DNA of 64,000 bases. Source: a bacterium UBP4_UBA6127 (lineage in GTDB: Bacteria > UBP4 > UBA4092). The stretch spans positions 34,486 to 98,485 of the forward strand of contig DIVR01000021.1 in the NCBI GenBank assembly GCA_002428325.1. Direction: 5' to 3'. Of this stretch, positions 3,736 through 60,336 are shown piece after piece. The notes below the pieces were generated by a model that saw only the letters and a program-made list of their open reading frames with translations, did no database searches and was not told the DNA's origin. Positions within the stretch are counted from its first letter, which is position 1. Every line of letters begins with the position of its first letter. The translations under genes and the position numbers were made by a program.

Positions 3736-4353
3736 TTATTTACAAAACATGGCCAGGAATGGAACCAGAAAAGGAACAATCAAGGTAATAATCAATCCCT
3801 GAAAAAAAGCTATAAAAGCATATTCGGCGCCACTGACCCGATTAATCAGAATCAAGGTTGAATCCATAGTGGTAGCCCCCCCCATGGCAATTCCTGGAAT
3901 CGTTAATTTCATCCGGTGCAACAGGGGAAAACACAACATGGTTAGCATTTCCCTGATCACATTGGATAGAAATGCCAGGGCTCCCATCTCGGGCCCCATC
4001 CATTTATCCATTAATACAGAGGTTAATGAATACCACCCTAATCCTCCCGTCAGGCACATCCCTTTCATGAAAGGAAATCGTAACAGTACCGTCGCAATGA
4101 CCCCTCCGGCAAAAGAACCCAGTACCACAGCAATCGGCAGTACCAACATCTGAAATCCGACTGTTTTTAGTCTTTTCCAGATATGGTTTATACCCAAATC
4201 TATCCCTACCAGAAATATCAATAATTCCAACAGCCACCAGGCAAGGGAATCTACCCGAGAAATCACTTCTACCGATACCAGTCCAGTGGCCCCCAGGAGA
4301 ACTCCGCCAACAATACAAATAAATATTCCCAGAGTTATCAAAATATCTCTCAT
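3736..4353 (-). CDS. LysO-family (DUF340) exporter, large subunit
   Basis: 205-aa polytopic membrane protein with a GGLGWYSLTSVLM motif. Overlaps the upstream 100-aa membrane ORF by 4 bp (translational coupling). This matches the split LysO pair arrangement. Confidence 0.55.
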   Translation of the reverse strand: MRDILITLGIFICIVGGVLLGATGLVSVEVISRVDSLAWWLLELLIFLVGIDLGINHIWKRLKTVGFQMLVLPIAVVLGSFAGGVIATVLLRFPFMKGMCLTGGLGWYSLTSVLMDKWMGPEMGALAFLSNVIREMLTMLCFPLLHRMKLTIPGIAMGGATTMDSTLILINRVSGAEYAFIAFFQGLIITLIVPFLVPFLAMFCK

Positions 4354-4652
4354 GGCTGCTTTTTCCCGGGGAGCTTTCTCATGACACCATATCCTCCCAA
4401 AGCGCTTCCAAGAGTGGTCAAGGCTGCAAAAGTGGCTCCTTTAAATCCAATAGATTTCAGGTTTCCCATCACCCGGGGGGAACTACCAATTTTCAATCCC
4501 AACACAAATATCAGGGTAAACAGACCCAAGACACCCAGCCGCCGTGACCATTTAAGCCAACCGGCTTCAGGATTTGATTTATGCCCAATCCACAAACCTG
4601 TACCCAGAATGGGAAAAAGAATCAAAATGTTGAAAATATCTTGCCAAGTCAT
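4350..4652 (-). CDS. LysO-family (DUF340) small membrane subunit
   Basis: 100 aa, about 3 TM segments, ends ...GFKGATFAALTTLGSALGGYG. ATGA overlap with the large subunit. Confidence 0.5.
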   Translation of the reverse strand: MTWQDIFNILILFPILGTGLWIGHKSNPEAGWLKWSRRLGVLGLFTLIFVLGLKIGSSPRVMGNLKSIGFKGATFAALTTLGSALGGYGVMRKLPGKKQP

Positions 4653-4887: not shown

Positions 4888-6366
4888 TTATTCGTATAAC
4901 ATCCACTCTTTAGATGTGCCAGTAACAAAGAATGAACCACCCATAACCGTCTGTTTAGTCTCCAAAACAAAGTTATTAGGACCATCCGGAGGTGAATAAA
5001 CTCTGAGCAACTCGCTGATACTATCAGTAATATAAACATTGCCCACTGCATCCAGATCAATAGCTCTCGGAGTAGCACTAGCCCATGGTACCAGGGTCAA
5101 TTGGGTACTCAGATTTCCCAAAGGAAGAGGCAACGGACAAGATCCCAGTCCAGGGCCACCTTCTGTTAAGGCAAAAAGCATTCTTCCATGGTTTTCATCC
5201 AGAGCAAATCCACCAATCATTCCTCTGATGGGATCAGGAGTTGTATTACTATTTCCTGTTGAAAGGGAATCCCACAAAAGAGTTGACCCTGTAGAATCAA
5301 AAACCACTAAGCAGGGATAATCAGTTCCCGCAGAACGATAATTAGCTACATACCAATTCCCGGCAGAGTCGCGACGGACAGTTCCCGGGGTAGAATTAAC
5401 TAAGATACCTAAAGTAGAATCCCCCGGATAGGTTGTAAAGGTACTGTCGTTAATAGCTACTGTTGGAGCGGTAGTCCATGGAAAGGGTCCATTCCCCACA
5501 GGATATTTCCAAATGCTGCATTGCTGAATATCTCCAGCGGCAGGTAAATCTTCATCCTGGGTATAAAGGACCGTCTGGGTACCTGTTCCTTCTACATATA
5601 CCCCGGAGACGCTTCCATGCAGACCAGCGACCAATCCGGATGACAACTGTCCAGTGGTATCAAAGACCATCGTGAAATTACCGGACAAATCAGGTTCCGC
5701 CAAAAAAACATTTCCATGAGAATCTGACCAGTCAGCAATCCAGAGTCTACCGTCCGGACCCACAAAAAGGTGATAGGGACTGGATGTACCACTTGTCCCC
5801 CAATTAATACCTCCAGAACGGGCCACTGTTCCAATCGAAAGAGGATCAGACCCATCAGGATATAAGGCATATATGCCATCACCCATTAAACGGCCTGAGG
5901 CTGTCGGAGTCGTTCGGGTGTTGGTAATATAAACCATACCAAAATAGGGATCACCGCTATTTTTATTAACAGCACATCCTCGAGGACTCTCAAACTGGAA
6001 GATACTTTCAGCATCATTGGAAATAATATTCCATGTAGTATGCCCCACATTATCCACAGCAATAATCCTGAAACCATAATTGGCTGTCGTAGTGGCTGAG
6101 CCTCCCTCTGTTTTACCATCCCAGAATACTTGGTTATATCCTTTGAAAGGTGTACTTTCCAAGTTGCGAACAACAGTGGTATCTGGTAAAGGGCCATATA
6201 TTTGAACAGTTACAGCACTACAGGTTTCGTTTAATCGATAAGTAATTTTGGGAGCCACTCCGGTTGTGTTAACCGAAACAGAAAAAGGCATGACATTCGC
6301 AAAAACTGCACTGGTGAAAATTAACAATAAAAATACGCTCAAACAACATACAAAAATCTTTTTCAT
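4888..6366 (-). CDS. Secreted hypothetical protein, probable beta-propeller fold
   Basis: Signal peptide MKKIFVCCLSVFLLLIFTSAVFA. Gly/Ser/Thr/Asp-rich with repeated motifs (...GRLWIADWSDSHGNVF..., ...GNWYVANYRSAG...). No catalytic motif recognised. Confidence 0.55.
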   Translation of the reverse strand: MKKIFVCCLSVFLLLIFTSAVFANVMPFSVSVNTTGVAPKITYRLNETCSAVTVQIYGPLPDTTVVRNLESTPFKGYNQVFWDGKTEGGSATTTANYGFRIIAVDNVGHTTWNIISNDAESIFQFESPRGCAVNKNSGDPYFGMVYITNTRTTPTASGRLMGDGIYALYPDGSDPLSIGTVARSGGINWGTSGTSSPYHLFVGPDGRLWIADWSDSHGNVFLAEPDLSGNFTMVFDTTGQLSSGLVAGLHGSVSGVYVEGTGTQTVLYTQDEDLPAAGDIQQCSIWKYPVGNGPFPWTTAPTVAINDSTFTTYPGDSTLGILVNSTPGTVRRDSAGNWYVANYRSAGTDYPCLVVFDSTGSTLLWDSLSTGNSNTTPDPIRGMIGGFALDENHGRMLFALTEGGPGLGSCPLPLPLGNLSTQLTLVPWASATPRAIDLDAVGNVYITDSISELLRVYSPPDGPNNFVLETKQTVMGGSFFVTGTSKEWMLYE

Positions 6367-10705: not shown

Positions 10706-11326
10706 TTACTCTTCAGTTACTACACCTTTTTGAGAACGAATAATATCTCCATTTGAAACCGTTCCGTTACTAGGGTCATAAACCGCTAAACCATCAAAAA
10801 AACCATGGCCGGCAGCATCTGTATAAGTTGCCACTCGATCCGGTCCCGCTGAACTTAATCGCCAAAAACCATATTTACGAATCGCCGTTTGAACCTCTAC
10901 TGTATCGCCTGGATGCGGAAACCAAGCTTCAGCCTGGGCAGAATTATGCCCTTTCAATTCCGCGTCATAATTAATATAACGATACCGGGTTCCCGGAGTC
11001 CCCGGAATTGCTGATGGCATTCCCTGCCGGAATAGATCATTGATTAATCCAGTAGAAATATAGGCAATAGGAGTAGAAATAACAGAGGGCAGATACCAGG
11101 GCCAGCCAGTCGGGTCAATATCATCAGGATAAACATTATAGTCCACAAAATAAGATTCTAAAGCTGTTGTTAAAGTCTGTTCTTCTCCTTTGACCCGCGA
11201 TACCCTGGCTCGCGTCTGGGCAGCTAAAAAGTTCGGGATAGCAATCGCCGCCAAAATAGCAATAATCGCCACAACAATCAATAATTCAATTAAGGTAAAA
11301 CCACTTTTTTCACTTTTCTTCATCAT
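10706..11326 (-). CDS. GspG-like prepilin/pseudopilin (prepilin-type N-terminal cleavage/methylation domain protein), paralog 1
   Basis: N-terminus MMKKSEKSGFTLIELLIVVAIIAILAAIAIPNF matches the class III signal peptide with the G^FTLIELL cleavage/methylation motif. GspG-like ...SSAGPD... segment. C-terminus ...YDPSNGTVSNGDIIRSQKG is shared with the two neighbouring paralogs. Confidence 0.8.
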   Translation of the reverse strand: MMKKSEKSGFTLIELLIVVAIIAILAAIAIPNFLAAQTRARVSRVKGEEQTLTTALESYFVDYNVYPDDIDPTGWPWYLPSVISTPIAYISTGLINDLFRQGMPSAIPGTPGTRYRYINYDAELKGHNSAQAEAWFPHPGDTVEVQTAIRKYGFWRLSSAGPDRVATYTDAAGHGFFDGLAVYDPSNGTVSNGDIIRSQKGVVTEE

Positions 11327-11433
11327 TACACCTCCTTCCCTGAAAACCTAATAAGTATCACAAGCATCCGCTTCCGTCAACAATTTATTTCATAATCACA
11401 CTACAAAATTGCTTAAATCTTTCCTATCATTAA

Positions 11434-11468
11434 CAAAAAAGAGGCATTCCCCTTTAGGAAATGCCTCC
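11434..11468 (-). terminator. Rho-independent (bidirectional-looking) terminator for pseudopilin gene 2
   Basis: Stem GAGGCATT / AATGCCTC flanked by A6 / T6 runs. On the minus strand the hairpin is followed by TTTTTTGTT. Confidence 0.75.
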
Positions 11469-11487
11469 GAAAAAAATTTACATAATA

Positions 11488-12066
11488 TTACCGAGGGCTG
11501 GAATCTTCATTAGGATTTTTCTGAGACCTCATGATATCCCCATTGGAAACGGTTCCATTGGTTGGATCATACGGAAAAAGAATGTTGTAGGAATATCCTT
11601 GATAAGATAAATAACCTGTCGGCCCAAAAATCCGGTCTGGACCGGATGAACTCAATCTCCACTTCCCATAAAAACTACCATAAGCCTCTGCAGCCGCACT
11701 TCCCTTGATATACAGCGAATCCACTTCCATATAACGGTATCTCATGTAGGTAGCTGCACTGTCTGGAGCCCGGAAAGGGTCCAAAAAGGAATTAGAACTT
11801 AAATAGGCTATCGGTGTGGTGATCACATTGGGGACATACTGAGGCGCTGTCACAAAAGGCTCAACACACCAAGGGTATTCATTATTATCAACAAAATAGC
11901 TCTCTAAAGCGGTGGCCAATGATTGCAACTCTCCCTTAGCTCGTGATACTTTAGCTCTGGTCTGAGCGGCCAAAAAGTTGGGAATAGCAATGGCCGCCAA
12001 AATCGCAATAATCGCCACGACAATCAACAACTCAATCAGGGTAAAACCTTTTTTATTACTTTTCAT
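11488..12066 (-). CDS. GspG-like prepilin/pseudopilin, paralog 2
   Basis: N-terminus MKSNKKGFTLIELLIVVAIIAILAAIAIPNFLAAQTRAKVSRAKGELQSLATALESY is nearly identical to paralog 3. C-terminus ...YDPTNGTVSNGDIMRSQKN. Confidence 0.8.
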   Translation of the reverse strand: MKSNKKGFTLIELLIVVAIIAILAAIAIPNFLAAQTRAKVSRAKGELQSLATALESYFVDNNEYPWCVEPFVTAPQYVPNVITTPIAYLSSNSFLDPFRAPDSAATYMRYRYMEVDSLYIKGSAAAEAYGSFYGKWRLSSSGPDRIFGPTGYLSYQGYSYNILFPYDPTNGTVSNGDIMRSQKNPNEDSSPR

Positions 12067-12564
12067 TCAATATTCACCTCCTCTATTTTTTTATGTTTAA
12101 TTAACTGTCTTTTTCGAAATTGCTTAGAATTTACCAATTTTGTAACCTTCTGTCAATAGTCCTACAAAAAAGAATCTTCTCATCAGGTTTACCGGAATGG
12201 GAAATACTGATGTAGATATTTTATATATTATTGAGATAATAGTGGTTACGAGATACTCACCATTCTCACAAATACTCCTTGAAAAAACAGCATAATAATC
12301 ATTTTTATTAATATAGACTCAATAGACCTATTAAGGCATAAATCTTTTTTCTGATTAATAGACAGGGGATGATGACCACAAGCGTATACCGAGAAAGCAA
12401 TATAGGTTTCACCTTCAGCCTCCATCAGATTCTAGAGGGAAAAGCCTCTCATTGAAGTATCCTTCAACAAAAGGAATTTGTTCGGAGAGGTAACGGAGAG
12501 GGTCCGACCCTCTTTCCCTTGTTAAGCGACCTAGATCATAATGGTAATGAAACACATTGAGCCA

Positions 12565-12596
12565 TAAAAAATCGGCATCCGTTAATGGATACCGAT
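12565..12596 (-). terminator. Rho-independent terminator for pseudopilin gene 3
   Basis: On the minus strand ATCGGTATCC-attaac-GGATGCCGAT is followed by TTTTTTATGG, about 25 nt after the stop. Confidence 0.7.
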
Positions 12597-12619
12597 AAAT
12601 CAACAGGGTATAGAATGAA

Positions 12620-13225
12620 TCATTCATAATTATTCGGGTGTTTCTGGCTGCGAATGATATCTCCATTGGAGACAGTTCCATTACTGGGGTCATAAGCTAT
12701 GGTAATGTCCCATAAACCAAAAGGGGTACCTTTCCCATCCGCATCCGGAGTATAGCCTTTATCCGGCCCCAGAGAAACTATACGCCAACCCCCAAAAGCG
12801 TTTTGGTAAGTTGCTGTATAAATATTCCTCCATCCTAAGGAACCATCTCCGGTATTAGAATATCGATATCGAGTTAATAAAGGGTCATCTCCAGGATTTA
12901 ACGATCCCCGGAAAGGGTCTTTCAATAAATTGGATGAAATATAAGCTATCGGAGTGGTTACCTCATTGGGCATATACCAATAATAAGCTTGATTCGACCA
13001 TGTTTCTGATCCATCCTGGGGCCAAACATTATTATCCACATAATAAGATTCCAACGCTGTTGCCAATGTCTGCAGTTCTCCCTTAGCCCGGGAGACTTTT
13101 GCCCGGGTCTGGGCCGCCAGGAAATTAGGAATTGCTATCGCCGCTAAAATGGCTATGATCGCCACCACAATCAACAATTCAATCAAGGTAAATCCTTTAT
13201 TCTTTCTTTTCATGATCTTAAGCAC
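12620..13225 (-). CDS. GspG-like prepilin/pseudopilin, paralog 3
   Basis: The ORF starts MLKIMKRKNKGFTLIELLIVVAIIAILAAIAIPNF; the real start is probably the MKRKNKGF Met at about 13213. ...VSLGPDKG... segment and C-terminus ...YDPSNGTVSNGDIIRSQKH. Confidence 0.8.
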   Translation of the reverse strand: MLKIMKRKNKGFTLIELLIVVAIIAILAAIAIPNFLAAQTRAKVSRAKGELQTLATALESYYVDNNVWPQDGSETWSNQAYYWYMPNEVTTPIAYISSNLLKDPFRGSLNPGDDPLLTRYRYSNTGDGSLGWRNIYTATYQNAFGGWRIVSLGPDKGYTPDADGKGTPFGLWDITIAYDPSNGTVSNGDIIRSQKHPNNYE

Positions 13226-13476
13226 CTCCTTTCCAGTTATTTAATTTCTCACTTAATCACTATCTACATCTCTTTCCTCATTATCAGAATCCCTCTTCCT
13301 TTTGTCAAGTCTCTTATCTAAAGAGTCCATTTAATCACCCTTTTTTACCTATTTTCCTGTGGTATAATTCAAGGAGAAATATTGATAAATTCAGTCAATA
13401 ATAGAGTTTTTTTCCAAACCCAAGCAGCGGGGAAGAAAAAAGGAGCTGTTTAGGGAAGGAAGAGAGGGATCCAGGA

Positions 13477-19233: not shown

Positions 19234-20283
19234 TTAATCCTTACGCGCAATCACGATGATTTCATTTCGATGAGCCGGTATCCGGCTCAGAATATCTCTT
19301 TTCCATCGGGGGATGGAAATAGTCGGGTGTCGAAACATCTCTTGGTTAAACCCATTAAAAATAATTTCTTGATAAATGACTTTTTCAACCTTTAGCCCGG
19401 CTTTTTCCAGCATAATTCTAAAATCCCATTCGGTAAAAAACCGGTTATGTCCCCTCCAGAAACTGAAGGTCATGGCTGAAGTCTCATGAACGGCATCATA
19501 TACAAAGGGATGTAATTCCAGAAATCCGGAAAATCCTTCCCACCGATAAGCATTATCGGTAGAAAAAATCGCCACCCCATCTTTCTTCAAAACCCGGGTT
19601 ATCTCTTTAATAATTTCAAAAGGGTGATAGAGATGTTCAATCACATGGGCCATCAAAACCATATCCACTGAATTATCAGACTCCTCGAACTGTGAGGGAA
19701 TATCAGGCAACCTGAGGTCTGGCAACACATACTTATCCAGATTCACATATTCCACATCAATCCCCAATTTCGATAGAATCTCCCGCCAAGACTCCTCCAC
19801 CGGCAAGTTGGCAGTAGCTTTTATCTTCCCCTGATACCCATAAAATTCCCTCATCAGCACATCCAGTGAATAAGGATGGGCCCCAACATCCAGAAACTGA
19901 TGATTAGTTCCCTCTTTTAAATAGGGCTTCAGGGCTTCCATGGTTAACCAGAGTCGATGGGTCTGAGATACCATATAATTAGGGGTTTTCAAATAATAAC
20001 GTTCATCATAGGGAATGCCTTCGAAAGGAAGAGCCTGATGATCATCGATATATCTTACAAAATCCGGAGATGGACAGTTTAACCAATCTAAAGAAGAATC
20101 ATTAAGGGATATTTCCTCTTTTTGAGAAAGCAGCTTTTTTAAAGGGATATCTCCAAAAACTTCAACAAAAGTTCCCTGGGAAGAACCTTCAGCATATCTT
20201 GATGGCGAATCTATCCTTCCCCACATCTTTTTTATCCACTGTTTTATCATAAGTACCTCAGTACGCAAGCAGCAACTCATCAT
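19234..20283 (-). CDS. Class I SAM-dependent methyltransferase
   Basis: Motif I-like FLDVGAHPYSLD and post-II VLKKDGVAIFSTDN. An alternative start at MIKQWIKK (about 20250) is preceded by GAGG. Confidence 0.6.
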   Translation of the reverse strand: MMSCCLRTEVLMIKQWIKKMWGRIDSPSRYAEGSSQGTFVEVFGDIPLKKLLSQKEEISLNDSSLDWLNCPSPDFVRYIDDHQALPFEGIPYDERYYLKTPNYMVSQTHRLWLTMEALKPYLKEGTNHQFLDVGAHPYSLDVLMREFYGYQGKIKATANLPVEESWREILSKLGIDVEYVNLDKYVLPDLRLPDIPSQFEESDNSVDMVLMAHVIEHLYHPFEIIKEITRVLKKDGVAIFSTDNAYRWEGFSGFLELHPFVYDAVHETSAMTFSFWRGHNRFFTEWDFRIMLEKAGLKVEKVIYQEIIFNGFNQEMFRHPTISIPRWKRDILSRIPAHRNEIIVIARKD

Positions 20284-20382: not shown

Positions 20383-22122
20383 TTATTCAGGTTTACGAGC
20401 TTTTATATAAAACAAATAACAGCTGTCAATTTGGTCTGAAAAATAAGGCTGTTTAACTATTTCCTCCGGTGCAAATTGCCCGGAAGCCTGAGATTCAGGC
20501 AAAGGCAGTAACCCCTTTTCTTCCATAATTTCAAATCCATGTTTTTGAAGTTTTTCCTTCAACTGGGAAGGGGTGTATTCAATTTTATGTTCAGGATGAA
20601 TGAGCCTGTGAGGAGATTCCAACCGGGTAATCAGTCGATTCGGCGTATCCAGGCAGAAATACCCCCCGGGTTTGAGTATCCGCCAGACTTCCTGAAGGCA
20701 CTGTTCACCTTCATTCTCACTGATATGTTCTATGCTTTCTCCCGACCAGACCATCTCAACTGATGAATCAGGAATAAATTCAAGTTTCGACATGGAGGAG
20801 TAGTGATATTCAATACGATTGCATTTACCATAATCGGTAACAACTCTCGCCTGCTCCGTTGCCTTCAACATTCTAATCGCTGGAGGAAGATCCACAATGA
20901 TTAACATTGACGCTTGATGGGGATATCCCATGCCATACAGGCATCCTTCCTGCCAGGAAGGAGAGGCTCCCCCCAAGTCCACAATCACATCCGCTGCGGG
21001 AAGAAGGGTTTGTATCATCTCCAGCCTTGCCTTATGAATATATTCCAGAATATTAAACCGGCCTCGCTCATATTCTTTTGATTCAAATAGTAACTGAGGA
21101 ATATCCTTTCGAGAAATCTTATCCGTTTCCAGCAAATTCTGATAATAAGCCAAGTCCTCCGCATTCGCTTTTCGACTCAGCAGGAGCCTGAAAACCATAT
21201 CAATGTATTGAGCATCATTAAAAAGGATGGGATCCATGGGAAGATATCCATCAGGCAGTATCATTAATCGTTTCTGAAGGGCCGCCAATTTATGCTGAAC
21301 CATCTGTTTTGCCCGAGAGACTTTATAATTGCTTTTTTGTGTAGGCTCTTTCACATCATTCTCCTTTTTCAACAGGACAATCATCCGTTCAATATAAAGG
21401 TCTTCCTGCCGAATTCCCTGAGTTTTTTCTGGGAGGATTTTCTTTTCAAACGCTGCCAGTTTTCGAGTCCTGGGTAAATGTTGGTAATCTTTCCAGACGG
21501 GATAAAGTCCTGCCTCTTTCCAGTGGGTTTCAAACTCGGAGACTGTCAGCCGGTTCAGTGTTACATAATGGTTCCAAGTCCAATCCTCAACGTTTTTTCG
21601 GGATTTAATTTCTTCATCAGGCAGTATCAAATGTACCCAGGGAAACTCTTCCCGGGGATAATAGTTCCATAAATGAGACCCGATTGGGCTGAAATACATT
21701 GGCACCACACTGATCAGGATAATTCCCCCCGGTGCCAGAAGTTTTGATGCGGTCAGCAGGGCTTCCCGGGGTCGGGAGATATGTTCCCAAACATCATACG
21801 AAAATATAATATCAAACTTTCTATCCCCCAATAGTTTCGGGTCTTCTATATTATCTTCAATAAATTCCAGTTTAAAAATATCTATCTTATAATGGGCAGC
21901 CAGGGTATCCAAATGGCTATCCCCATAATCGCCCAGATCAATGTCCACACCGACAGCTTTATCTGCACCCAGATAAGCAGCGGCTAATAACCCATTCCCG
22001 GTTCCGCACCCGATATCAAGGACTGTTTTCCCTTTAAAATCGATTTCAGGGCAAAACCCACCAATACTATGGAACAGGTCCATTATCCCTCGAAATCTGT
22101 TTTCCGCATCATGATACAACAT
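20383..22122 (-). CDS. Fused protein with two class I SAM-dependent methyltransferase domains
   Basis: N-terminal domain motif I VLDIGCGTGNGLLAAAYLGA...VGVDID and motif IV/post-II IIFSYDVWEHI. C-terminal domain VIVDLGGAS..., IIVDLPP and LKPGGYFCLDTPN. A helical linker of about 150 aa lies between them. Confidence 0.7.
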   Translation of the reverse strand: MLYHDAENRFRGIMDLFHSIGGFCPEIDFKGKTVLDIGCGTGNGLLAAAYLGADKAVGVDIDLGDYGDSHLDTLAAHYKIDIFKLEFIEDNIEDPKLLGDRKFDIIFSYDVWEHISRPREALLTASKLLAPGGIILISVVPMYFSPIGSHLWNYYPREEFPWVHLILPDEEIKSRKNVEDWTWNHYVTLNRLTVSEFETHWKEAGLYPVWKDYQHLPRTRKLAAFEKKILPEKTQGIRQEDLYIERMIVLLKKENDVKEPTQKSNYKVSRAKQMVQHKLAALQKRLMILPDGYLPMDPILFNDAQYIDMVFRLLLSRKANAEDLAYYQNLLETDKISRKDIPQLLFESKEYERGRFNILEYIHKARLEMIQTLLPAADVIVDLGGASPSWQEGCLYGMGYPHQASMLIIVDLPPAIRMLKATEQARVVTDYGKCNRIEYHYSSMSKLEFIPDSSVEMVWSGESIEHISENEGEQCLQEVWRILKPGGYFCLDTPNRLITRLESPHRLIHPEHKIEYTPSQLKEKLQKHGFEIMEEKGLLPLPESQASGQFAPEEIVKQPYFSDQIDSCYLFYIKARKPE

Positions 22123-30820: not shown

Positions 30821-31651
30821 TTATTCTTTCCAGTTAAAAACCAGTTGATTCCTCTTGGGAACTCGCTGATAAGGGTATTTAGGATACCCTAAGAGCATGG
30901 AGTATTGGGCTTTATACCCTTCCGGCAACCCCAGGCTTTCCCTTAATTCAGGAGATTCATTCAAACCAATTTGAACCATTCCTGCCCAACAGGTTCCAAT
31001 CCCATAAGAAGGGGCCAATAAATCAAAATATGACAAAGCGATTATGGAATCAACAAAGCTGATGGGGTAATCTTTTTTTCCATAAGCAATCATTAAATGC
31101 GGGGCATTTCGACAAATAGGGTCCAGTCCCTGATCCCAACTCCTGACTAAACTGGGAAAAGTAAAAGACAAGGGATGTTCCATCCCAGTTTTGACTGCAA
31201 ACCTCATCCATTCAATAGTCTTTTTAGCCAGGTCTCTGACTTTTTCCTTTTCATATATCCCCAGCCAATGGACCGACTGTCCATTTACCCCGGTCGGGGC
31301 ATAATGGACGACTTTGATGATTTCTTCCAAAATCCCTTTCGGTACTGGCTTATCCTGATATTCCCGAACCGACCGGCGCATCAAAATCTGACGGCTCATC
31401 TCCTCAGGACTTGGAAGTTTACCGTTTCCTTTGATATCAGGCACTTCTCCAGCCTCAGGGTAATCCAGTTGAACAGCTCCACCCGGGCAGACAGCCTCGC
31501 AATGGCCACAATGGATACAATAAGCCAGCCGTTCCTGATTAATAGCGGGTGTTTCTTCGTTTTCATTCAGTTCTAAAATACTATAAGGGCAAACCTCCAC
31601 ACAGGCGCCGCATTTATTACATAAAATCGAGTCAATAGTTAACTTTGTCAT
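30821..31651 (-). CDS. 4Fe-4S dicluster ferredoxin domain fused to a nitroreductase-family domain
   Basis: N-terminal CNKCGACVEVCP and CIHCGHCEAVCP (2 x [4Fe-4S]). The remaining about 200 aa are nitroreductase-like (...RRSVREYQDKPVPKG...). Confidence 0.65.
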   Translation of the reverse strand: MTKLTIDSILCNKCGACVEVCPYSILELNENEETPAINQERLAYCIHCGHCEAVCPGGAVQLDYPEAGEVPDIKGNGKLPSPEEMSRQILMRRSVREYQDKPVPKGILEEIIKVVHYAPTGVNGQSVHWLGIYEKEKVRDLAKKTIEWMRFAVKTGMEHPLSFTFPSLVRSWDQGLDPICRNAPHLMIAYGKKDYPISFVDSIIALSYFDLLAPSYGIGTCWAGMVQIGLNESPELRESLGLPEGYKAQYSMLLGYPKYPYQRVPKRNQLVFNWKE

Positions 31652-31766
31652 AGATATCTCCTACACCTAGGCAGTTCAGAAAATCATATCATGAGAAATG
31701 GATACTTCCCACTTTGAGAAGACTCTTTCATCTTCACACAGAGGGTTATCTTTCCCGCTTAATTAG

Positions 31767-31792
31767 AGTCTTTTGACAGCTGTCAAAAAACT
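31767..31792. repeat. Palindromic motif AGTCTTTTGACAGCTGTCAAAAAACT (copy 1 of 2)
   Basis: The 18-bp perfect palindrome TTTTGACAGCTGTCAAAA sits in the intergenic region upstream of the ferredoxin-nitroreductase gene. A second copy lies at 58406..58429. Confidence 0.6.
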
Positions 31793-31873: not shown

Positions 31874-32590
31874 CTACTGAATGATGCCATTTTTAAGAGC
31901 AGGAATTCGGTCTGAGACGCTTAACTTTGAACAGTATTCCAAATCCCCTTCCATCCCCAGGGATGCCAGGTATCTGCCATGTTCACAAGCCTTTAACAGT
32001 CCCAGAATATCCTGTTTGTAATGGCCCCAGAGTATCAATCCGGATTGGGCACTGTCCGTTAACTCTAGATCTTTCCGAATTTCACAAAGCTTTTCAATCA
32101 TCCCACCGGCGCAGACTACATCTTCCAGACAAAACTGGTTCAATTTCCCGGCAGCAAAAAGGTGAATATCCGTCTGGACATCTGCCAGCCTGGCGACAAT
32201 AGCATCCATATTTCGATAACAGCCAATCAGAATGTCTTGGGCAACCGAGGCATAGACAATGGCCCGAGTCCCATTGGTTGAACAAATCATGATATTCATT
32301 CCCCCAACCAACTCAGATACATATTCCAAAGGGGAGTTCCCCAAATCAAAACCCTCTATTTTTATCCCCCCCCGTTCTCCGGATATCAAGACCGGTTCAG
32401 GGGCATATTGGGCCTTAAGTTTCATGGCCTGCTCGGGTTCGGATACGGGAACAATCCGTTTAGCCCCATTGGTTAAAGCTTCTAATATAGTAGTACTGGC
32501 ACGCAAGGCATCAATCACAACAACCGTTGCGTTTTTTAGGGAATCCCGTAATTCGGGCTGAGGAAAGGGAACTACATTAATTACTGGCAT
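31874..32590 (-). CDS. 2-phosphosulfolactate phosphatase (ComB) family protein
   Basis: N-terminal VVVIDALRASTTI resembles the ComB family motif. About 238 aa, typical of the family. Confidence 0.65.
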   Translation of the reverse strand: MPVINVVPFPQPELRDSLKNATVVVIDALRASTTILEALTNGAKRIVPVSEPEQAMKLKAQYAPEPVLISGERGGIKIEGFDLGNSPLEYVSELVGGMNIMICSTNGTRAIVYASVAQDILIGCYRNMDAIVARLADVQTDIHLFAAGKLNQFCLEDVVCAGGMIEKLCEIRKDLELTDSAQSGLILWGHYKQDILGLLKACEHGRYLASLGMEGDLEYCSKLSVSDRIPALKNGIIQ

Positions 32591-34072: not shown

Positions 34073-34603
34073 TTATTCAATCTTCTTAACCTGGATATTA
34101 TAAATTGCGGTAAACCCCACCATCATCCAACCCAAAAAAACAAAGAACATTGTCATCGAAGAATAGTAAAGGATATCCTTCAGATGGAAATAATCTATTT
34201 TTTCCTGGAGAGATAAATACATATTAGCGAAGGATAGGATAGGCTTCACCATAAAACCTATTCCTAAAAAGATAAAATACATGATGATAAATGATACGCC
34301 ATAATTTAGTCGAGAAGGAACCGGTATGTCTTTAACCGCTGGATATACTGATAAAAGTTCCTTTGCTTCCCGGTACATCCTTTTTGATGTTGCCGCTGTC
34401 ACAGTTGTTCCGATAGCTAAAGCTATCAATGATGGCAATAACTCTATGAAAGTACTGTATAGGTATAATATTAGCCCGTACTCTAATAAGAATAAAATGA
34501 GGATGAAGAATTTTAAGATATAGCCATCAAGAATATCTTTCCTGTCTATAATCTGATGCTTATAGGCCATCGGTTCAAATAATATTTGAGCAAGCTTTTT
34601 CAT
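34073..34603 (-). CDS. Hypothetical membrane protein
   Basis: 176 aa with 4-5 hydrophobic helices. No motif recognised. Confidence 0.4.
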   Translation of the reverse strand: MKKLAQILFEPMAYKHQIIDRKDILDGYILKFFILILFLLEYGLILYLYSTFIELLPSLIALAIGTTVTAATSKRMYREAKELLSVYPAVKDIPVPSRLNYGVSFIIMYFIFLGIGFMVKPILSFANMYLSLQEKIDYFHLKDILYYSSMTMFFVFLGWMMVGFTAIYNIQVKKIE

Positions 34604-34804
34604 TTTATTTTCCCTCAGTTTCCCTATCCCCTTTGTTACCTTCCCTTATCAAGATAAAATAACACTTTATATCTGTCAATCTTTTTCAACCTTGGCAAGC
34701 CCCTGGGCCGGAAAAACCTTCCCTGGAAAACCAATTTCTCTATAAAGAACTCATTTCTGAGGAGTTATCTTCATTTTTCGTCCCAAGAGCCATCGGAGTG
34801 AGAC

Positions 34805-34872
34805 CCAGGCTGTAGCCATCAGGTTGGGTCCCGCTTCGTTGTAAAAGGAGACTGAAATAGGATAAAGGGAGT
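34805..34872. repeat. Conserved intergenic element, copy A (GAGACCCAGGCTG-N8-CAGGyTGGGTCCC followed by a GA-rich tail)
   Basis: About 65 nt, highly similar to 45191..45258. Contains an imperfect inverted repeat CCCAGGCTG / CAGGTTGGG. Confidence 0.5.
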
Positions 34873-45190: not shown

Positions 45191-45258
45191 GGAGCCAGAC
45201 CCAGGCTGATGGTTACAGGCTGGGTCCCAATCCGTCAAAGAAGGGGAAAGAAATAAGT
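45191..45258. repeat. Conserved intergenic element, copy B
   Basis: gagccagacccaggctgatggttacaggctgggtcccaatccgtcaaagaaggggaaagaaataag. Same orientation as copy A and intergenic. Confidence 0.5.
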
Positions 45259-57493: not shown

Positions 57494-58252
57494 CTAATTA
57501 CCATTCCAAATAGACCTTGGACCACCCCATCGAACAGGTAACCAGTGAGAAAATTCCATTCCACTTTCCTTTACACCAGCAGCTTTTATACCAGCACCAT
57601 ATCCTAATAAGATATTCCATGCGACTCCAGACAATTCACCTGCTTTATATAATGAGGAACAATGATCAACAAAATCATCAGCTCCATTTGCTTTTCTTAT
57701 CACACGAGTCAAACCAAATGTAATATTATCAGCAAAACCTGCAGAGTAATCACCAGCATCTCTTAATATATCTTCCCAGTAATCAAGTCCATCAGGATCA
57801 TAACCATTGACCGGATCATTGAAACAGAACTGATACAGATTCGGCCCATCCAATCCCAAAGGTTCAGGGGAAAGCCATCTCCCCAATTCCGGGTCATACC
57901 ACCGGGCGCCGAAATAATAAAGGTCGATATACCCATCTTCCTGGCCTCTTTCATGGAGATGGAGGTCATTATCCGCATACCCGGTGGAAGATATTATATT
58001 CCCGAAAGCTTCCTGATTGTAAGTGGCAATAATACTACCCGTGGAATCAGAGATAAACAGCACATTTCCAATGGGGTCGGTATGGTACCAATAATCAATG
58101 CCGCCTTTACGGATACTGATGACTCGGTTCAGGGAAGAAGGCAGGCTATGGTAATAGGTATTGGAGACAGTGGCTCCCTGATAGATTTCTCGTTCTTGGA
58201 TGACATTATTCCCATCAAAGTAATATTGGTTCTGGGTCAGCTTTGCTTCAAC
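57494..58252 (-). pseudogene. 5'-truncated Rhs/YD-repeat protein C-terminal fragment (orphan Rhs-CT toxin cassette)
   Basis: The open frame runs from a stop at 58253-58255 with no ATG. The only canonical start is a GTG at 58063, in the middle of a YD repeat. YD repeats: ...GIDYWYHTDPIGNVLFISDSTGSIIATYNQEAFGN... RHS core: DLYYFGARWYDPELGRWLSPEPLGLDGPNLYQFCFNDPVNGYDPDGL. The variable C-terminal toxin domain is about 100 aa. Confidence 0.6.
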
Positions 58253-58405: not shown

Positions 58406-58429
58406 TCTTTTTGACAGCTGTCAAAAAGA
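58406..58429. repeat. Palindromic motif TCTTTTTGACAGCTGTCAAAAAGA (copy 2 of 2, 24-bp perfect palindrome)
   Basis: Intergenic, between the aspS 3' end and the Rhs fragment. Same TGACAGCTGTCA core as copy 1. Confidence 0.6.
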
Positions 58430-58548
58430 CTTCTTATTGATTTTTATGGAGTTAGCAATATGGGATAGACACAGGGGAAAGGTTATAAATAAAAAACAGG
58501 GGAACCCTTGGTTAGAAGGTTTCCCCTGTTAGGAAATAACAGATAAAT

Positions 58549-60336
58549 CTATTCAACCACTTTTACATGGAGTTCTCTAAGCAGTCTTGCATCGGCTTCA
58601 CTGGGTGCAGAGGACATGGGGCATTGTGCCTTCTGGTTTTTTGGGAAGGCAATGACATCCCGGATACTCTTATTACCCGTCAGAAGCATAATAAACCTGT
58701 CCAACCCGATAGCCATCCCGCCATGGGGAGGTGCCCCAAACCGGAGAGCTTCCAGGAAGAATCCAAATTTATTGGCCGCTTCTTCTTTGGAGATGCCAAA
58801 TATCTGGAACATCTTGGATTGCAATTCCGCGTCATGGATACGGATGGAACCACCGCCCAATTCTGTCCCATTCAGGACCAGGTCATAGGCATGCGCCCTG
58901 GCCCGGGTGGGGTCTGTATCCAGAAGAGTCACATCCTCATCCAAAGGAGAGGTGAAAGGATGATGCCGGGCTTTAAACATCTTGTCTTCTTCCCTGTATT
59001 CCAAAAGCGGCATATCCGTGATCCAGAGGTAATTATAGACTCCAGGAGTCCGAAGTTTCAATTCATCGCCAAAATGGAGCCGTAATCTGCCAAGGACATC
59101 GGCTGCAATATCTTCCTTATCGGCAATATAGACAATCAAATCCCCCGGGTTAGCATTAAAAGCGGTTACCAGGGTTTTGATTTCTTCTTCTTTAAAGAAT
59201 TTAGCGATGGGGGTCTCTATACCTGTTTCGGTTACTTTCATCCAGGCCATTCCCTTGGCACCCATCTGCTTGGCATAATCAGTCAGCTTGTCCAACTGGT
59301 TCCGAGTATAGGTGGCACAACCGGAAGCACAGATACCTCTGACGACCCCTTTTGATTGGACTGTTTTGGCAAATACACCAAATTCCACATCTGCCACCAG
59401 TTGGCTGACATCCAGGATTTCCATACCAAACCGGGTATCCGGTTTATCAGAACCATATTTCAACATCGCTTCGGCATAAGGCATCCTGGGAAAAGGCTGG
59501 GGAATATCCATATTATGGATTTCCTTCATCACCCGGCAGACAGCCGGCTCCACCAAGGTAAAGATATCTTCCTGGTCAATGAAAGACAACTCAAAATCCA
59601 ATTGGGTAAATTCCGGCTGCCGGTCAGCCCGAAGGTCTTCATCCCGGAAACAACGGGCTACCTGGAAATATTTCTCCACCCCGGAGATCATCAGGGTTTG
59701 TTTGAGTTGTTGCGGAGATTGCGGCAAAGCATAAAACATCCCCTGATTGACCCGGCTGGGAACCACATATTCCCTGGCTCCGGTTTCAGGGGTACTCTTA
59801 TAGAGTACCGGGGTCTCGATTTCCAGGAATCCTTGCTCATCGAAATAATCCCTCAGGACTTTGATGACTTTATGCCGTAAGGCAAGATTTTTATACATCT
59901 CGGGCCGCCGAAGGTCTAAATACCGATATTTCATCCTTAAATCTTCAGAAGTATCGATATTATCTTCAATCAGAAAAGGAGGGGTCTCTGATTTATTCAA
60001 AATCTGGAGGCCTTCGCCCAACACTTCAATTTCTCCGGTAGCCAGATTGGAATTGATGGTACCTTCAGGCCGTTCCCGGACCAAACCCTTCACCGAAACC
60101 ACAAACTCTGACCGAAGTTTCTGAGCCTGTTTCTGGATTTCAGTATCCTGGGTCGGGTCAAATACAATCTGGACCAACCCCGTTCTGTCTCTCAGGTCCA
60201 CAAAGGTTAAACCACCGTGGTCACGAGTCCGCTGGATCCATCCGGTTAAATGGACTTCTTTTCCTACATGGGATTTTCTTAAATCGTTGCATGCATAGGT
60301 ACGCTTCCAAAACGCCATGAGATTAATCCTTTCCAA
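58549..60336 (-). CDS. aspS: Aspartate--tRNA ligase
   Basis: Class II aaRS motifs FRDEDLRADRQPEFTQLD, ...GGGSIR... and PPHGGMAIGLDR, with an N-terminal OB-fold anticodon-binding domain. The true start may be the MAFWKRTY Met, 6 codons in. Confidence 0.95.
   Translation of the reverse strand: MERINLMAFWKRTYACNDLRKSHVGKEVHLTGWIQRTRDHGGLTFVDLRDRTGLVQIVFDPTQDTEIQKQAQKLRSEFVVSVKGLVRERPEGTINSNLATGEIEVLGEGLQILNKSETPPFLIEDNIDTSEDLRMKYRYLDLRRPEMYKNLALRHKVIKVLRDYFDEQGFLEIETPVLYKSTPETGAREYVVPSRVNQGMFYALPQSPQQLKQTLMISGVEKYFQVARCFRDEDLRADRQPEFTQLDFELSFIDQEDIFTLVEPAVCRVMKEIHNMDIPQPFPRMPYAEAMLKYGSDKPDTRFGMEILDVSQLVADVEFGVFAKTVQSKGVVRGICASGCATYTRNQLDKLTDYAKQMGAKGMAWMKVTETGIETPIAKFFKEEEIKTLVTAFNANPGDLIVYIADKEDIAADVLGRLRLHFGDELKLRTPGVYNYLWITDMPLLEYREEDKMFKARHHPFTSPLDEDVTLLDTDPTRARAHAYDLVLNGTELGGGSIRIHDAELQSKMFQIFGISKEEAANKFGFFLEALRFGAPPHGGMAIGLDRFIMLLTGNKSIRDVIAFPKNQKAQCPMSSAPSEADARLLRELHVKVVE

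Follow-up and report, generated by a model that had tools for sequence, protein, structure and literature searches.

A repeated intergenic palindrome in an uncultured bacterium as a possible loading site for an orphan ParB-family protein

Introduction

What reads a perfect palindrome that recurs in distant intergenic spacers of a bacterial genome? The question is raised by a 64,000-nucleotide stretch of DNA from the uncultured bacterium UBP4_UBA6127 (contig DIVR01000021.1, positions 34,486 to 98,485; hereafter the window), in which an AT-flanked palindrome of 24–26 bp lies once between comB and a ferredoxin-nitroreductase gene and once between aspS and an Rhs fragment. A reading made from the letters and the open reading frames (ORFs) of the window (the sequence-only reading) had favored an operator for a dimeric helix-turn-helix (HTH) regulator, with a cruciform or terminator-like element, a dispersed repeat or a recombination site as alternatives. 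We describe here sequence comparisons that point, tentatively, to another kind of reader: the palindrome may be a loading site, similar to parS or to the sites of Noc and KorB, for a dimeric protein of the ParB family, a reading to which we assign a probability of roughly 45%.

The canonical chromosomal parS has the sequence TGTTNCACGTGAAACA, and a parS inside parB itself is known from Bacillus subtilis spo0J. Noc, which binds Noc-binding sites (NBS, ATTTCCCGGGAAAT) in Firmicutes, and KorB, which binds OB sites (TTTAGCSGCTAAA) on RK2, are orphan ParB paralogues, which have no ParA next to them. They bind palindromes of 13–14 bp that are flanked by T-rich and A-rich DNA and occur throughout the replicon, often a long way from promoters.

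Results

Identical copies of the palindrome lie in intergenic DNA

Re-reading of positions 31767–31792 bore out the geometry that had been described for copy 1: a perfect 18-bp palindrome, TTTTGACAGCTGTCAAAA, occupies 31771–31788 and grows to 26 bp if one mismatched pair (31770/31789) is allowed. Copy 2 is likewise, as described, a perfect 24-bp palindrome (TCTTTTTGACAGCTGTCAAAAAGA, 58406–58429), within which TTTTGACAGCTGTCAAAA recurs exactly at 58409–58426; between the two copies 19 nt are identical. The layout of the element is T(4-6)GACAGCTGTCA(4-6), with the core TTGACA-GC-TGTCAA. The window contains two exact instances of its 14-bp core, TTGACAGCTGTCAA, and with up to two mismatches there are three matches against 0.14 expected, a number reached in 0 of 100 shuffles. 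When the window was extended outward by means of its end genes, to 81.9 kb of the strain, a third exact copy was found about 1.5 kb past the right end (L165:7788–7801, about 65,531–65,544 in window numbering). Copy 3 stands 143 bp after the stop codon of a gene for an S8 peptidase of 2009 amino acids (aa), beyond the terminator of that gene and between convergent genes.

Over the 81.9 kb the exact 14-mer was seen three times against 1.7e-4 expected under a first-order Markov model, and the exact 18-mer three times against 2e-6 expected. All three copies are intergenic (intergenic DNA makes up 13% of the 81.9 kb; P about 0.002), at a density of about 1 per 27 kb. For the 81.9 kb, the comparison with chance frequency and the count of intergenic copies, both proposed by the sequence-only reading, thus came out far beyond chance and wholly intergenic, and we conclude that the palindrome is real and non-random. 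Allowing up to one mismatch in TTGAC-N4-GTCAA added two matches only, which lie within genes and do not exceed chance expectation; no degenerate intergenic near-match was found in the 81.9 kb, and the central AGCT and the flanks are invariant among the copies of this species. ParB-family sites are perfect or near-perfect palindromes of 13–16 bp in several near-identical copies without a degenerate halo, and the perfect palindromes of 18 and 24 bp described here agree with that description. Few perfect copies, an invariant center and the absence of a halo form a pattern typical of parS and NBS, not of transcription-factor regulons. Avoidance of CAGCTG of the PvuII type was also considered and was rejected, as the hexamer is over-represented (23 seen against 9.8 expected).

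Three further assemblies of the strain have copy 1 in identical form; the record names of assemblies in which the strain occurs (TOLCLC_..., 'hydrocarbon.metagenome') point to consortia that degrade hydrocarbons. The core of copy 1 is also unchanged, beside an immediately adjoining indel, in a relative with 97% protein identity. Copy 2 is exact in relatives with 99% AspS identity, the surrounding 320 bp differing by roughly 8% (eye count of the alignment), and the core of copy 3 is unchanged in 97–99% relatives in which the length of the adjoining T-run differs. All three cores are intact across relatives with 97–99% protein identity.

A ParB-like family accompanies the palindrome in related species

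A more distant relative, species B (loci L156 and L157; AspS 92% identical, nitroreductase 69%), has four exact TTGAC-N4-GTCAA sites in 18 kb, against 0.01 expected. One of them lies in the same comB–nitroreductase spacer, about 3.5 kb from a gene for a 337-aa protein with a ParB_N domain; the other three lie at the 3' end of that gene and shortly downstream of it. When the protein was compared with 5.8 billion sequences, nine close clusters only were found (P0174–P0182), and the next matches were canonical ParBs with E ≥ 1e-7. The family, found in four related species, matches Pfam ParB_N at 1e-12, retains the GxRR (GYRR) and ENxxR (ENMER) motifs, and aligns to Caulobacter ParB (PDB 6t1f) over residues 19–167, including the HTH region, as well as to Noc (7ol9). 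The NCBI name of one member, P0181, is 'Nucleoid occlusion protein'. No ParA gene adjoins the ParB-like genes at the loci examined, and for this reason we call the family orphan. No viral relatives of it were found.

Nine of the ten sites in these species lie within 650 bp of a ParB-like gene (Table 1), with about 0.07 sites expected in about 105 kb of relatives. In L156, L249/L250, L251 and L135 the palindrome is encoded by P-L-T-A/D-V-K codons at the extreme end of the gene; the half-site codons TTG (Leu) and GTC (Val) are retained in four of five orthologues while the adjacent codons are variable. Additional sites stand 250–650 bp downstream of the ParB-like genes or, in L245, 390 bp upstream, and two of the L156 sites (4500 and 4549) lie between convergent genes. 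Locus L135 was reached by two routes: first by a scan of 185,579 GTDB genomes with the 18-mer DNA sequence alone (at least 29 loci, with the window's species not among the matches listed), and later, independently, via the family member P0181. The window's exact core stands in both of the L135 sites, one of which, 285 bp downstream of the P0181 gene, is the exact 18-mer. In the lysO–galT genes L135 and the window share 76% nucleotide identity; that the same palindrome stands at a non-homologous place in so diverged a species argues for a trans-acting reader. These results demonstrate that an orphan ParB-like family is tightly associated with TTGAC-N4-GTCAA, and that in one relative the sequence is the window's exact 18-mer.

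Further observations concern the ParB-like genes themselves. In six of six (L135, L156, L245, L249, L251, L252) an 11-bp palindrome, TTGACtGTCAA, stands 38 bp before the start codon. Its half-sites are those of the 5-4-5 sites, separated by 1 bp; it is conserved even in the member with 50% identity and may serve as a -35 box or as an operator for autoregulation. The flanks of the genes hold short repeat modules, for example GTAGTGTCGGGGTTTATCCCCG, CACGGACCTGGAGGTCCG and GGGACAAGTTAAAAACTTGTCCC (L156:2660–2800 and 4285–4485; L249:11000–11400; L245:9680–9900), and two of the family clusters, P0174 and P0175, are 88% identical and both come from sample 3300050333; contigs often stop just past the gene, and the make-up of these surroundings suggests a multi-copy cassette or a repeat-rich region. 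The L135 contig (MVQY01000010.1, 13 kb) is labelled Methanobacterium sp. PtaU1.Bin097, an archaeon. Its nucleotide identity to loci of this bacterial lineage is 76–87% (lysO–galT, ParB-like gene), and it is probably mis-binned.

Table 1. Positions of the palindrome copies, of their neighbors in the window and of the sites in related species (window numbering unless a locus is named).
Feature	Position	Strand	Context or evidence
Copy 1	31767–31792		Between comB and Fer4-nitroreductase gene; perfect core 31771–31788
Copy 2	58406–58429		About 65 bp past aspS terminator, upstream of Rhs C-terminal fragment
2-phosphosulfolactate phosphatase (comB) gene	31874–32590	-	Upstream of copy 1; Pfam PF04029, 6.5e-69
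Fer4 dicluster and nitroreductase gene	30821–31651	-	Downstream of copy 1; PF00881 3.4e-26, PF12838
aspS	58549–60336	-	Upstream of copy 2; PF00152, PF02938, PF01336
Rhs/YD-shell C-terminal fragment	57494–58063	-	Downstream of copy 2; PF25023, weak match
aspS intrinsic terminator	58495–58530	-	GC-rich hairpin, -13.7 kcal/mol, then TTTTTTATTT
Candidate extended -10 box TGaTATGAT, nitroreductase promoter	31683–31691	-	TGgTATAAT in relative with 69% protein identity
Degenerate look-alike AAGACAGGTGTCAA	58364–58377		47 bp from copy 2
Partial core, single half-site, TTGACAGCTGTTAT	20416–20429	-	TTGACA, 16 nt, then TATAAA
L156 sites	3876; 4500; 4549; 7438		3876 inside 3' end of ParB-like gene
L249/L250 sites	10982; 11270		10982 inside ParB-like gene
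L251 site	10976		Inside ParB-like gene
L245 site			390 bp upstream of ParB-like gene
L135 sites	2991; 3304		2991 inside ParB-like gene

The 14-bp core is shared with a plasmid parS

Comparison with known motifs, which the sequence-only reading had called for, gave two matches: the predicted consensus of the regulator HcpR1, considered below, and the parS of a repABC plasmid. The parS of pAMI4, a tested centromere bound by the ParB-family protein RepB, is GTTGACAGCTGTCAAC, with the family consensus GTTNNCNGCNGNNAAC, and single-site oligonucleotides carrying it have been made (PMC9040568). Its 14-bp core is identical to that of the window element, and both are perfect palindromes in few identical copies. 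In contrast to the plasmid site, the terminal G/C pair is replaced by T/A in all three copies, so that eight of ten GTTNNCNGCNGNNAAC positions match, and the contig that bears the window element is chromosome-like and belongs to an unrelated lineage known only from uncultured bacteria. Neither repA nor repB nor repC was found in the window or its flanks, and the lineage's ParB-like protein scores only 20.6 bits on the RepB model. In a metagenome-assembled genome of the Acetobacteraceae (L125), one of the loci from the genome scan with the 18-mer, the exact 18-mer stands 64 bp upstream of an operon of repA (ParA-type) and repB (PF07506 and ParB_N), at a place where parS has been described in replicons of this kind. 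Given the pAMI4 parS and the L125 operon, ParB-family proteins can be counted as known readers of the 14-bp core.

The likeness to Noc and KorB lies in arrangement: the ParB-like family also lacks an adjacent ParA, and the window sites are likewise T/A-flanked and scattered. The site sequence is different from NBS and OB, the family has no evident N-terminal membrane helix of the Noc type, and, unlike Noc and KorB, it is confined to one uncultured lineage and has a site inside its own 3' coding end. With the canonical ParB–parS system the element shares a palindrome of similar length, but no parA–parB operon lies near the window copies. The canonical parS itself was sought in the window and found absent, the best match having two mismatches, at chance level.

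Position argues against a promoter operator

An operator or activator box for an HcpR1-type CRP/FNR protein, or for another dimeric HTH factor, controlling the nitroreductase and other genes, is the main rival of the loading-site reading. The predicted HcpR1 box is wyTTGACnnnnGTCAArw (Rodionov et al. 2005, PMC1274295), and TTTTGACAGCTGTCAAAA, in both copies, matches it at every specified position; its 5-4-5 inverted repeat is the layout of an FNR box. The ferredoxin-nitroreductase fusion downstream of copy 1 is loosely consistent with a nitrosative or redox regulon. In the relative with 69% identity the site in the same spacer is centered at a distance from the conserved -10 that is greater by about 21 bp, or two helical turns, in the upstream direction. 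The central 4 bp are variable in this relative, as for an FNR-type site.

The location of the copies is difficult to reconcile with such a box. The promoter of the nitroreductase gene is probably the extended -10 box listed in Table 1; if the transcript begins about 7 bp past it, the center of copy 1 would be at about -103, which is unusually far, and no -10 box was found at class II spacing. Copy 3, L156:4500 and L156:4549 fall between convergent genes, and L156:3876 and its counterparts fall inside a coding 3' end, which makes a promoter-operator role doubtful. No CRP/FNR, hcp, frdX or nor gene was found in the 82 kb, and no HTH regulator, CRP/FNR or ParB protein among the window ORFs scanned with Pfam or the called genes in the flanks of ~18 kb. 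The box is also at odds with the invariant central AGCT and flanks and the lack of degenerate sites in this species, and it would leave the strong link to ParB-like genes unexplained. A binding site for a dimeric HTH protein thus stays plausible, while an operator at a promoter, lacking -10 spacing, is improbable; we regard a CRP/FNR-type box as unlikely.

Repeat, terminator, promoter and recombination readings

The palindrome might instead be a dispersed repeat without a partner, either the relic of a former cluster of ParB-like gene and sites or a small selfish or structural repeat tolerated between genes. The 82 kb of the window's species yielded no partner protein, and the corresponding locus of L156 contains a ParB-like gene, which the window lacks there, so that copy 1 could be a leftover. 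The same 18–20-mer also occurs in the middle of a repeat in Parabacteroides and human-gut contigs (36 loci clustering by flanks). However, unselected remnants should not stay three identical perfect palindromes at non-homologous places, and the relative with 76% nucleotide identity retains the identical 18-mer at a further, different locus. Similarity among the three copies ends after about 20 bp, for which reason the suggestion of an ordinary dispersed repeat fails. Miniature inverted-repeat transposable elements (MITEs) and repetitive extragenic palindromic (REP) elements were rejected on the same grounds, the flanks being unrelated and the density low. A repeat without a partner is, in our estimate, rather improbable.

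As a terminator, cruciform or site-specific recombination site, the palindrome would have its position in its favor: it lies downstream of three minus-strand genes, a consensus scan marks copy 2 as terminator-like on the plus strand, and copy 2 adjoins the strain-variable Rhs region. The hairpin, however, is weak (-4.7 to -8 kcal/mol), with an AT-rich stem in which three of ten pairs are G–C, and no free U-tail remains because the flanking A-tract pairs with the T-tract. No plus-strand gene is transcribed into copy 2, and copy 2 is dispensable for termination since aspS has its own terminator 65 bp upstream. Recombination fares no better, since about 165 bp separate the palindrome from the strain-specific breakpoint by the Rhs patch (about 58243); neither an integrase gene nor a tRNA lies nearby. 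A tRNA-linked integration site or a structured RNA was rejected as well, as ARAGORN found no tRNA, and Rfam no structured RNA family, in the window. The terminator, cruciform and recombination readings, which the sequence-only reading had left in play, are very improbable.

The palindrome can further be described as a crossed pair of consensus -35 hexamers, one TTGACA per strand, which might drive divergent transcription or a small RNA. TTGACA does serve as a -35 element here, for example as TTGACA-17-TATCTT before gene 34073–34603 and TTGACA-17-TATAAA before gene 4888–6366, and the partial copy at 20416 may itself be such a promoter. At all three copies, however, no acceptable -10 box was found 16–18 bp away from either hexamer, on either strand, which led us to reject a sigma-70 or divergent promoter, and the lack of Rfam families in the window speaks against a small RNA. 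We consider a promoter element highly unlikely. Promoter, terminator and MITE readings thus fail for want of a -10 box, a GC-rich stem, a U-tail, degenerate copies and shared flanks.

Surroundings of the copies and other features of the window

The gene neighborhoods of both copies are those first described, as verified with Pfam (Table 1), and all adjoining genes are on the minus strand. From the comB stop codon to copy 1 there are 82 bp, from copy 1 to the nitroreductase ATG about 120 bp, and from the aspS stop codon to copy 2 about 120 bp. Two weaker resemblances to the element were set aside. The look-alike near copy 2 has two core positions changed in the 99% relative (TTTTGGCACCTGTATTT); being mutated there, it is probably meaningless and non-functional. 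A partial core had been placed at about 20413; it exists, as AACAGCTGTCAA, at the slightly different position 20418–20429. With its flanking bases it may, tentatively, be an ordinary -35/-10 promoter of gene 19234–20283, passed over by the promoter scan because its -10 lacks the final T. It is probably unrelated and was not counted as a member of the element.

Next to copy 2 the strain carries a 189-aa Rhs C-terminal fragment and small downstream ORFs (57494–58243). At the same place the relative with 99% AspS identity (L162:2843–9195) has a 459-aa tetratricopeptide repeat (TPR) protein, a complete 1417-aa Rhs gene and several downstream ORFs, and similarity between the two ends at about 58243. 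Elsewhere in the window, a 65-nt repeat with 71% identity between its copies (34795–34859 and 45191–45255) includes a hairpin, GACCCAG...CTGGGTC, that is conserved. Downstream of either copy there is a minus-strand gene without a Pfam match; the repeat, which has no Rfam match, may be a cis-regulatory RNA or leader. Three tandem paralogous genes at 10706–13229 share repeats of 211, 45 and 71 nt; a prepilin-type N-terminal methylation motif was found in the paralogue at 10706–11326, the only one of the three scanned.

Matches outside the lineage

A metagenome scan with the 19-mer was complete and gave 75 loci, none of them a contig of this lineage. In Parabacteroides faecalis a 20-mer lies 5.1 kb from chromosomal parA–parB; this was dropped as support because the 20-mer there is the center of a longer multi-copy repeat. 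That 20-mer, TTTTTGACAGCTGTCAAAAA, is the center of a repeat family in gut Bacteroidales, with 36 loci that cluster by their flanks: L124, L130 and L144 (P. faecalis) and about 33 human-gut contigs among L178–L241. In Arsukibacterium (L129, L142, L145, L149, L150) and a TARA metagenome contig (L202) the match is part of a conserved perfect 38-bp palindrome, AACGCTATTTTTTTGACAGCTGTCAAAAAAATAGCGTT, of which L150 has a variant that differs by one nucleotide at either end. The matches in Parabacteroides and gut contigs and in Arsukibacterium have no bearing on the function of the palindrome.

A contig labelled Methanofastidiosum sp. UBA9950 has two exact 18-mers 49 bp apart between convergent genes (L146:2074–2140), one of which is RNase III-like by sequence; no ParB gene is present on this 2.8-kb contig. 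Among the matches listed, the 14-bp core also lies inside a ParB-like ORF of a viral contig (L026:6172–6185), and in ~10 apparently related phage contigs (L028, L047, L068, L071, L073, L086, L100, L105, L115, L119) it lies roughly 3–5.5 kb from a ParB-like gene.

Discussion

The best-supported partner of the palindrome is a ParB-family protein, which has an HTH domain and binds as a dimer. If the palindrome is its loading site, the HTH domains of the ParB-like dimer would recognize the two TTGAC half-sites, and nucleotide-dependent closure would then turn the dimer into a clamp that slides onto neighboring DNA, by analogy with the CTPases ParB, Noc and KorB. Scattered near-perfect intergenic sites would in this way mark the chromosome for its organization or for long-range control of nearby genes. 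The presence of a ParB-like protein in the window's species, its binding at the palindrome and the effects of that binding are inferred.

Several points weigh against a ParB-family loading site. The chief one is that neither tblastn nor Pfam found a ParB_N gene in the 82 kb of the window's species. Nor could any of the nine family clusters be placed in this species; its other proteins come from ENA or NCBI sources, whereas seven of the nine clusters are JGI-only and two stem from different organisms or samples. Most sites of the relatives are in or beside the ParB-like gene itself, these genes are embedded among other local repeats, often at contig ends, and at least one second site, L249:11270, sits in a duplicated copy of the 3' end of the gene; because of this duplication and the local repeats, part of the association between gene and site may reflect descent rather than function. 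The conservation of the cores in the 97–99% relatives is not statistically significant at such divergence, and the motif also fits the published CRP/FNR consensus. The family scores 56.2 bits against a TIGR00180 cutoff of 58.45, and the AlphaFold model of the protein was too poor for use (predicted local distance difference test, pLDDT, 51.6).

More doubtful than the loading site as such is a wider proposal that would follow from it. In this proposal, a lineage of methanogenic hydrocarbon- and terephthalate-degrading consortia would have a private, ParA-less orphan ParB-CTPase system, comprising a ~335-aa protein, a loading site in the 3' end of its own gene and a handful of 18–24-bp intergenic palindromes, the two of the window included, and serving to organize the nucleoid or to control genes at a distance. 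It would be a third such solution beside Noc with NBS and KorB with OB. The element itself would join a known class of ParB-family binding palindromes and would be nothing categorically new.

Should the loading-site reading be wrong, the palindrome is a common kind of regulator box or a small repeat and matters only locally. If it is right, an orphan ParB-family clamp in a lineage without a cultured member would have in the palindrome an address on the chromosome that can be read. Orphan ParB proteins are common (bioRxiv 10.1101/2025.10.10.680097), but very few have known DNA sites; in this case the sequence by itself allows a protein to be paired with a site, and the pair is directly testable. 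The use of the same 14-bp core by the RepB of alphaproteobacterial plasmids and, apparently, by an unrelated ParB-like family would inform how the specificity of ParB for parS evolves.

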